Source: Escherichia phage vB_EcoM-UFV09
Length of the DNA: 64,000 bases
Reading direction: 5' to 3' (one strand)
Sequence record: MZ291552.2
Shown: positions 37,167 to 38,568 of the stretch, in pieces
How positions within the stretch are numbered: the first letter of the stretch is position 1
Layout of the letters: the number at the start of each line of letters is the position of its first letter
Notes under the pieces: generated by a model
Seen by the model: the letters and a program-made list of their open reading frames with translations, nothing else
Told to the model about the DNA's origin: nothing
Databases searched by the model: none
Program-made: the position numbers and the translations under genes

Positions 37167-37682
37167 TTAAAGCAAATTAAACATTTTAACAGTCGGCAAA
37201 ACAATTTCTTTTTCTATATAAGAGTATTTAACACTCTCAACTACACGCAAAAAATCATAATCATAATACTCAGAAGCACTGCCTAAAATATTAATAAGTC
37301 CTTCAAGCACTTTATTACCATTCACAAAGAATAAGTCAAATACACGTTCTTCGTCTTCTTCGGATTTATTACCAAGGTCAACTTCTATGTCAAAGACCTT
37401 TTTAATGAATTCTGGATAAAGTTGTTCTGAGAACAGTCCTTCAACCAAGTATTCATAAATAAAAAGCGATTGCTCGCTGAACAAGCCATTACCACAATAA
37501 CGTTCAGCTTTAGTACTAGAATGTCTGCTTTTAAACTTCTTTAAAAGATATTGGAATTGTAAGATTTCATGCTCTTCTACGCCAAACAGTGTTTTAGTTT
37601 TATAGTTGTCACCATCATTTTCCCAGGTAGTGACATCAATTACGTAACCCTGTGGAATTGTAGTACCTAAACAAATATTCAT
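37167..37682 (-). CDS. Hypothetical acidic protein, about 171 aa
   Basis: Start set at the TGAAAATG junction with the upstream stop. Confidence 0.5.
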   Translation of the reverse strand: MNICLGTTIPQGYVIDVTTWENDGDNYKTKTLFGVEEHEILQFQYLLKKFKSRHSSTKAERYCGNGLFSEQSLFIYEYLVEGLFSEQLYPEFIKKVFDIEVDLGNKSEEDEERVFDLFFVNGNKVLEGLINILGSASEYYDYDFLRVVESVKYSYIEKEIVLPTVKMFNLL

Positions 37683-37684
37683 TT

Positions 37685-37975
37685 TCACCACGCTGCATTA
37701 ATATACGTTTTCTGAATGCATTCAAGACCTAAAGGATTCTTGAAAATATCATATTCAAGAGGACCTTTTTCTGTTTCAATAAAGAAATCAAAATTTACTG
37801 TATTAAATTTACGGTCTTCCTTCACTAATTTAACTTGAGAAGATGAACGGTCAACATAAACCTTTTCAACTTCAAAACATGTTAAAACGCCATAATCATC
37901 AATCAAGGCTTTAGCCGCGTCTTGATCATATTTATATCCATTTTCAATGGATGATACTTTCGCATAAAGAATCAT
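37685..37975 (-). CDS. Hypothetical protein, 96 aa
   Basis: ORF. Confidence 0.5.
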   Translation of the reverse strand: MILYAKVSSIENGYKYDQDAAKALIDDYGVLTCFEVEKVYVDRSSSQVKLVKEDRKFNTVNFDFFIETEKGPLEYDIFKNPLGLECIQKTYINAAW

Positions 37976-37977
37976 TA

Positions 37978-38382
37978 TTAACCTTTATCAACAATAGTAT
38001 GTGTATGGGCATTTACGATTTGCCACCAGTCAAAACTATCGCCAAATCGTTTTGATTTATTGTCTTCAATAATTTGGCGTAATTCATCTTCTGTTTCAGC
38101 ATACGCAATCAAATCATCATATCCACCGCAAGGATAGTAATTATCGCCTGCGAACAAAAGAAAATTTACTTTAGATGGGTCTACATAATAATGCTCTTTA
38201 GGATATTTAGTTCCTTTCCAATCAGTTACTTCAACATAACGATAAGAAAATCCATTTTTACTTTCAACCCAACTCCACGCTTCAAAAGGAGTATTAAAAA
38301 CTCTATCAGGTATTAAATTACCTTCAAAATGAGAAGGATTTGCATAATCCCCAGCATAAACATAATATTCGTTAATATTCAT
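37978..38382 (-). CDS. Hypothetical Tyr/Trp-rich acidic protein, 134 aa
   Basis: ORF. Confidence 0.5.
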   Translation of the reverse strand: MNINEYYVYAGDYANPSHFEGNLIPDRVFNTPFEAWSWVESKNGFSYRYVEVTDWKGTKYPKEHYYVDPSKVNFLLFAGDNYYPCGGYDDLIAYAETEDELRQIIEDNKSKRFGDSFDWWQIVNAHTHTIVDKG

Positions 38383-38568
38383 TTATTCACCTTTAGAAAT
38401 TTTATCCATAACAATAGCGATTAAACCAATTAAAAATGCTACTACAAGTGAAAAAACATTTTCTGCTGTAGTCAATAATCCGCATATAAATCCAACAAAC
38501 ATTGAAAAACTAAAAGCGGAAGCAGAAATTGCAATAGCAACATTTCGAATTAATTCACAACGTTTCAT
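38383..38568 (-). CDS. Small two-helix membrane protein, 61 aa
   Basis: Hydrophobic segments; early promoter upstream. Confidence 0.5.
   Translation of the reverse strand: MKRCELIRNVAIAISASAFSFSMFVGFICGLLTTAENVFSLVVAFLIGLIAIVMDKISKGE

Follow-up and report, generated by a model that had tools for sequence, protein, structure and literature searches.

The window, as the term is used here, is the whole stretch of DNA analysed, 64,000 nucleotides from Escherichia phage vB_EcoM-UFV09 (record MZ291552.2), and is a segment of a Tequatrovirus genome. Positions 37000-38700 were 100% identical in the Escherichia phages vB_EcoM-UFV05, UFV06, UFV10 and UFV11, and 94-97% identical in many T4-like phages. 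Along the minus strand the order is gene 1, 57A, 57B (39002-39457), ipI (38645-38929; PF11634, E 1e-51), four open reading frames (ORFs) and then 11 tRNA genes. The four ORFs, all on the minus strand, encode proteins of 61 aa (38383..38568, the first cistron of the unit), 134 aa (37978..38382), 96 aa (37685..37975) and 171 aa (37167..37682), so that the approximate sizes given in a first-pass annotation of this DNA proved exact, and their positions and strand were confirmed. The cistrons abut, with stop-to-start gaps of 0-2 nt, and a Shine-Dalgarno sequence is present for each. For the 171-aa gene the start is an ATG with a GGTGA Shine-Dalgarno; an alternative GTG start at 37691, giving 174 aa, was rejected, since no ribosome-binding site precedes it and residue 4 is where the PHROG alignment begins. 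All other-frame ORFs between the tRNAs and ipI were of 41 aa or less.

Each of the four ORFs matched one PHROG from end to end (E 6e-35 to 2e-68), and the functions of these PHROGs are unassigned. Compared with T4, dN/dS was 0.27 for the 96-aa gene, 0.24 for the 134-aa gene and 0 for the 61-aa gene, which differed from its T4 counterpart by 6 synonymous and 0 non-synonymous changes; for the 171-aa gene, compared with phage RB32, dN/dS was 0.07. The four ORFs are real genes under purifying selection.

Three of the four are T4 genes. By tblastn, the 96-aa product was 89.6% identical to T4 Trna.2 over 96 aa, the 134-aa product 85% identical to Trna.3 and the 61-aa product 100% identical to Trna.4. 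The 171-aa product had no counterpart in the T4 locus and was 98.8% identical to RB32ORF135c, which the RB32 annotation describes as 'similar to RB69ORF151c, 44RRORF127c'. Alignment of the window with RB32 and T4 showed that, at the T4 junction, the end of trna.2 runs directly into the final ~20 nt of the 171-aa gene, and that both borders of the missing segment carry similar short sequences (AAAATG.. TAAT.TTTG). The similarity of these borders suggests that T4 lost the 171-aa gene through a short-homology deletion of ~510 bp, which on the same alignment appears to have spared the middle promoter described below.

Transcription of the unit would begin upstream of trna.4. A promoter scan placed an early promoter at 38625-38597, with a -35 element GTTTACA, a spacing of 17 and an extended -10 element TG-n-TACTAT, and a hairpin spans its -10 element (-16.9 kcal/mol, z -3.9). 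Promoter and stem-loop together form a cassette of the PeSL type on the minus strand (38586..38639), which is 98% identical in T4 and is one of three copies of a 54-nt direct repeat (34633-34686, 38586-38639 and 38949-39002; 67-100% identity). The copy at 38949-39002, upstream of ipI, likewise folds across the -10 element (z -5.8); the copy at 34633-34686 is a weaker match, and folding it gave no hairpin. This promoter/stem-loop architecture of T4-like phages was first noticed at the ip locus (PMC4122927). The 61-aa gene had initially been credited with an early promoter of its own: the promoter is present, but it would drive the whole four-cistron unit.

At the other end of the unit, a pattern search found a putative middle promoter (TGCTTTA-N12-TATTAT; 37150..37174, minus strand) in the form of the T4 MotA-box consensus. 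It overlaps the stop codon of the 171-aa gene and lies just upstream of tRNA-Gln, and its sequence is kept in T4 despite the deletion. The pattern used, TGCTTYA 11-13 nt upstream of a TAnnnT -10 element, occurred at 13 sites in the window against 2.3 expected. The site is consistent in sequence with the T4 middle promoter that PMC2330249, citing Broida and Abelson, mentions just upstream of the tRNA cluster. Downstream and in the same orientation as the four ORFs is the tRNA array (11 genes, 36066..37080, minus strand; ARAGORN and Rfam), which comprises Gln, Leu, Gly, Pro, Ser, Thr, Met(CAU), Tyr, Asn, His and Arg without segB. An Rfam search over 34000-39200 returned nothing except tRNAs.

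It had been suggested that this interval is among the most variable loci of T-even phages. Across 50,697 phage records searched by tblastn, Trna.2 matched 803 records, Trna.3 763 and Trna.4 790 (428 of them at 99% aa identity or more), compared with 292 for ipI. The 171-aa protein matched 575 records, 253 at 60% aa identity or more, and 57B matched 1484, 783 of them at 80% or more. Since the ~760-800 records with trna.2-4 are close in number to the 783 with 57B at that threshold, the block is present about as broadly among T4's closer relatives as the core genes that flank it, and it was found in phages of Escherichia, Shigella, Salmonella, Yersinia, Klebsiella and Enterobacter. Judged from these sequence comparisons, what varies here is which ip cassette is carried, how the inner part of the tRNA array is made up and whether the 171-aa gene is there. 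At the ip locus, RB32 has Ip7, Ip9 and Ip5, whereas the window phage and T4 have ipI.

The three larger products are soluble and acidic: their pI values are 4.6-4.8, and the net charge is -12 for the 171-aa protein and -4.5 and -10 for the other two. The Trna.2 ortholog (96 aa, pI 4.8) aligned with PHROG 2023 at E 1.3e-47 over positions 1-94 of 95 and has that family's full-length orthology, its position between trna.3 and the tRNA cluster, and its strand; homologs carry the recent Pfam accession PF27001. The Trna.3 ortholog (134 aa, pI 4.7) matched PHROG 1411 at E 2.7e-50, and its homologs carry another recent accession, PF26894, of which we found no mention in the literature. In Trna.3 the N-terminal half is variable and a C-terminal domain of ~62 aa is highly conserved (NFLLFAGDNYYPxGGY...FDWWQIVNAHTH). 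The alignment of the family (A2) has 40 invariant columns, and the C-terminal domain (NFLLFAGDNYYPxGGY...WWQIVNAHTH) is present here; in other phages it also occurs as a stand-alone protein. A structure model of Trna.3 (pLDDT 72.6) suggests two alpha/beta halves. An internal duplication in this protein was considered and gained no support from the sequence score (28, against a shuffle mean of 24.9 +/- 5.3).

None of these searches assigned a function. Scans of the four proteins against Pfam, NCBIfam and PADLOC gave sub-threshold matches only, of which Tpt1, TusC, DUF7554 and REase_II (E 0.03-0.6) were discarded as noise. PDB sequence and profile searches with the three soluble proteins returned nothing below E 0.1, and no fold match assigned a function to any of the four. 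The first-pass description of the four ORFs as uncharacterised thus holds at the level of profile, PDB and fold matches: orthologs were found for all of them, and their functions are unassigned.

The T4 orthologs have been sampled in several genome-scale studies. Time-resolved omics classed T4 trna.2 and trna.3 as early RNA and early protein, and trna.4 as early RNA with its protein undetected (PMC9697503). In the transposon study HIDEN-SEQ (bioRxiv 10.1101/2025.11.20.689424), insertions were recovered at 23/25 TA sites of trna.2, 39/40 of trna.3 and 16/17 of trna.4, and because insertions are tolerated the three genes are called non-essential on E. coli K-12. The main text of that preprint gives no conditional phenotype for trna.2-4, and one of its comparison tables lists an adjusted p of 1.0 for them. 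In a study of the defence reverse transcriptase DRT1 (PMC13275509), two T4 proteins alone, Trna.2 and Inh, were enriched with the wild-type enzyme relative to an RT-knockout, although for Trna.2 this could be a matter of non-specific attachment to the DNA adduct of DRT1. We searched by gene name and accession; apart from the papers on SegB, DRT1, HIDEN-SEQ and omics, no functional studies of trna.2-4 came up.

We treat separately what the block is and what it does. Its identity and architecture as conserved T-even early genes are nearly certain. From the early side, the order is a PeSL-type early promoter, trna.4, trna.3, trna.2, a gene of the RB32ORF135c type, a putative MotA-dependent middle promoter and the tRNAs. 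Three of the products would be small, acidic and soluble, and the fourth, of 61 aa, a membrane protein with two helices. These products do not appear to be enzymes of any recognisable class; small, acidic and without a catalytic motif, the soluble ones would be binding proteins. The neighbouring ipI blocks GmrSD, and 57B is Acb1, which defeats CBASS. We infer that the soluble proteins work as these two neighbours do, most likely by binding macromolecules of the host or its defences during the first minutes of infection, and that Trna.4 probably acts on an inner-membrane target.

Such a binding or counter-defence function is a tentative assignment, to which we give clearly less than even weight. 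Taken as a whole, identity and architecture together with that function make the account we lean towards, by a modest measure. An early role in host takeover or anti-defence is plausible. The one experimental hint towards function is the co-purification of T4 Trna.2 with active DRT1, and the four proteins had no homology to characterised families of anti-defence inhibitors. Very high conservation, especially the 100% identity of Trna.4, is unusual for genes engaged in an arms race and accords better with a housekeeping-like role during infection.

A different division of labour would have Trna.4 act like T4 Imm or other small early membrane proteins, changing the inner membrane so as to keep out superinfecting phage or disarm a membrane-acting defence effector, with the soluble proteins as unrelated passengers. 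The Trna.4 ortholog (61 aa; PHROG 1692 at E 6e-35) has two hydrophobic segments, at ~9-33 and 38-55, and charged termini; this hydropathy is in line with its initial description as a small two-helix membrane protein, and it is predicted to reside in the inner membrane. Its size and helices suit an Imm-like role, as do its place as first cistron behind the early promoter, its early RNA in T4 and the extreme purifying selection on it (0 against 6 changes; 428 records at 99% identity or more). Yet Trna.4 has no similarity to Imm or to characterised families, it went undetected by proteomics and its gene is non-essential on K-12. We regard this reading as rather unlikely.

Similar weight attaches to the proposal that the block, above all the 171-aa protein, serves the adjacent tRNA genes, by helping to mature or shield phage tRNAs or by counteracting host defences that target tRNA, for instance anticodon nucleases. 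The protein (pI 4.6, net charge -12; PHROG 2290 at E 2e-68) carries the N-terminal GYxxxxTTWENDGDxYKT hairpin and the C-terminal RVxE strand of what we call the WENDGD family, whose members are ~120-200 aa and all stand-alone. A profile run against 1.84 billion representative proteins, clustered at 50% identity, gave 1003 relatives at E<=1e-3, of which 494 reached E<=1e-10. Among 55 diverse members, E21, D23, D25 and R146 were invariant and G12, W20, N22, Y27, F50, G64 and N65 nearly so; in the structure prediction the hairpin has the invariant acidic residues at its tip. The same 55 members had no meaningful Pfam match, and no PDB relatives were found.

We analysed 80 IMG/VR loci of the family, among them loci of T4-likes and of jumbo phages of 200-500 kb. 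A tRNA lay within 5 kb of the gene in 40 of them and within 1 kb in 26, and all these tRNAs shared the strand of the WENDGD gene. After the loci were collapsed to 51 clusters at 60% identity, the proximity persisted in 13 clusters within 1 kb and in 20 within 2 kb. Jumbo phages of 200-380 kb are among the tRNA-proximal clusters. The homolog of Klebsiella phage KLB8 is located within the tRNA array, beside a YbiA/NADAR-like gene. The latter was considered as a partner of the family and rejected, being a neighbour in 4 lineages only. Outside T4-like synteny we found no conserved partner genes; only gp1, 57A, 57B and gp3 recur.

The proximity of WENDGD genes to tRNAs may well be a real tendency. 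With the position of the four genes immediately upstream of the array and co-oriented with it, the proximity across clusters that include jumbo phages and the placement of the KLB8 homolog within an array all speak for service to the tRNAs. Several points speak against it: half of the 80 loci have no tRNA within 5 kb, the Straboviridae share synteny, and the tRNA arrays of large phages lie in early accessory regions full of small ORFs. No gene co-occurs with the family across lineages apart from the T4-like syntenic neighbours, and the 171-aa protein is acidic, without an RNA-binding or nuclease motif. Moreover, T4, whose tRNA cluster is well studied and functional, does without the 171-aa gene. 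On balance this too seems improbable.

A more novel pair of claims joins two leads: that the 171-aa WENDGD protein stands for a very large, unnamed family of large-phage proteins with a functional link to phage tRNA islands, perhaps through inhibition of host defence nucleases that cleave tRNAs, and/or that Trna.2 is a specific DRT1 binder, as inhibitor or trigger. We consider it quite unlikely. If it is true, the block would be a counter-defence operon cooperating with the phage tRNAs downstream of it, and if either lead proves to be counter-defence, phage tRNA islands would be linked to protein-based immune evasion.

The first-pass annotation had placed the four genes where T4 carries segB and read them as a lineage-specific cassette for host takeover or anti-defence, in a hypervariable slot filled by segB in T4. 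Part of this agrees with what we found. The interval holds no homing endonuclease: GIY-YIG and HNH motifs are absent from 35000-39000, the four ORFs have no Pfam match, the ORFs in other frames are short, and T4 SegB, used as a tblastn query against all of the window, gave no match at E<=10. The adjoining ip locus is truly variable, and close relatives differ in whether they have the 171-aa gene.

The premise about the segB site is nevertheless wrong, since in the annotated T4 record segB lies inside the array, between tRNA-Arg and tRNA-Ile, while trna.2, trna.3 and trna.4 fill the interval from tRNA-Gln to ipI, so that T4 itself carries three of the four genes. In the window, the slot of T4 segB holds tRNA-His, Asn and Tyr instead, which is a T2L-type array without segB; the T2L-type array has been described as segB-less, with a tRNA-Asn that is the preferred SegB cleavage site (PMC2330249). 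Nor are the genes specific to a lineage, three being T4's own trna.2-4 and the fourth RB32ORF135c, and a block present in ~760-800 records across six host genera is hard to reconcile with such a cassette, which we judge very improbable. That the ORFs are nonfunctional, a mere leader for read-through transcription into the tRNA cluster, is scarcely credible: the dispensability of trna.2-4 in T4 and a middle promoter of their own for the tRNAs speak for it, but dN/dS is 0 to 0.27 across the four, a Shine-Dalgarno precedes every ORF, the families are kept across genera down to 30-40% identity, and proteomics, which detected T4 Trna.2 and Trna.3, contradicts it.

The conserved early block that we favour consists of genes that are already known, long-catalogued conserved hypotheticals whose sequencing goes back to the 1980s; three are named in T4, and all carry annotations in hundreds of genomes. 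One value of the present analysis is corrective: a supposedly hypervariable interval proves stable, and segB has its place elsewhere. What is new is the size of the WENDGD family (more than 1000 representatives at 50% identity), its invariant loop and its frequent proximity to tRNA arrays. The first of two modest leads is this family of more than 1000 clusters, with an invariant acidic loop, which recurs beside tRNA arrays in unrelated large phages; the second is the reported physical association of Trna.2 with the DRT1 defence system.

Among known systems, IPI, Acb1/57B, the Ung inhibitor p56, Dmd and anti-CRISPRs share no sequence homology or significant structural match with the four proteins, and IPI differs from them further in having a capsid-targeting signal. 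T4 segB shows no similarity to the four ORFs either, having only the general tRNA region in common with them. The closest counterparts are T4 trna.2-4 (NP_049746-8; UniProt P13324, P13323 and P13322), which share order, orientation and the tRNA-Gln and ipI flanks with the window. In T4, however, trna.2 adjoins the tRNA array and its C-terminus is slightly altered at the deletion junction, whereas in the window, as in RB32, the 171-aa gene is interposed; RB32ORF135c occupies the same position as this gene, with no difference of substance. The element upstream of trna.4, a repeated module of ~54 nt with early promoter and hairpin whose copies also flank ipI, resembles the PeSL cassettes of Arbiol et al. 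(2010) and Comeau et al. (2014), which pair recurrent early promoters with stem-loops where gene cassettes meet. Here the PeSL copies flank the variable ip gene, whereas the block behind them, from trna.4 to the 171-aa gene, is stable.

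The 171-aa gene (37167-37682, minus strand; RB32ORF135c/PHROG 2290, the WENDGD family) is missing from T4 through a clean deletion of ~510 bp, as seen when window positions 37150-37190 are aligned with positions 4532-4640 of the T4 locus (L002). The borders of this deletion are short sequences that resemble each other, and the final ~20 nt of the gene survive in T4. This retained tail contains a predicted MotA-box middle promoter (TGCTTTA-N12-TATTAT, within 37150-37190), which overlaps the stop codon of the 171-aa gene. In several T4-like phages of Klebsiella, Enterobacter and Citrobacter (loci L014, L015, L024 and L028), a WENDGD-family gene lies within the tRNA array, as it does in Klebsiella phage KLB8 (3564-4013 of locus L003), and in each case the next gene is YbiA/NADAR-like. 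NADAR domains act on ADP-ribose modifications.

Trna.4 (38383-38568) is identical to its T4 ortholog at the protein level, the DNA differing at six synonymous sites, and was found at ≥99% identity in 428 phage records. Its conservation far exceeds that of the neighbouring genes, even though it is a dispensable 61-aa predicted membrane protein. A 54-nt early-promoter cassette resembling PeSL, the promoter and stem-loop cassette of T4-like phages, occurs three times in the window. The two copies flanking ipI (38586-38639 and 38949-39002) each have a strong hairpin spanning the -10 element; unlike these, the copy at 34633-34686 yielded no fold.

Between e.8 and rnaC lies a basic 157-aa ORF (34842-35315; PHROG 2280), 97% identical to RB32ORF133c and absent from T4. 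It is bracketed by 36-nt direct repeats (34802-34837 and 35357-35392; 94% identity between copies), each containing a GC hairpin followed by a T-run, as in a terminator. ORF and repeats together look like a cassette inserted at this position. Homologs of the T4 stable RNAs lie on the minus strand, rnaC (species 1; 35440-35578) at 98.6% identity and rnaD (species 2; 35585-35697) at only 78.8%; no Rfam model detected either.

Also on the minus strand, between rnaD and tRNA-Arg, is a 116-aa ORF (35697-36047; PHROG 3355, function not assigned) with no counterpart in the T4 or RB32 loci; it may match one of the ORFs that are specific to T2L in this tRNA region. The array of 11 tRNA genes (36066-37080) lacks segB, and the slot that segB occupies in T4, between tRNA-Arg and tRNA-Ile, holds tRNA-His, tRNA-Asn and tRNA-Tyr (36146-36501). 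This order without segB resembles the T2L array, and the preferred cleavage site of SegB is the tRNA-Asn gene of a T2L-type array (PMC2330249). Thus, UFV09 would be expected to receive segB by homing when co-infecting with T4.
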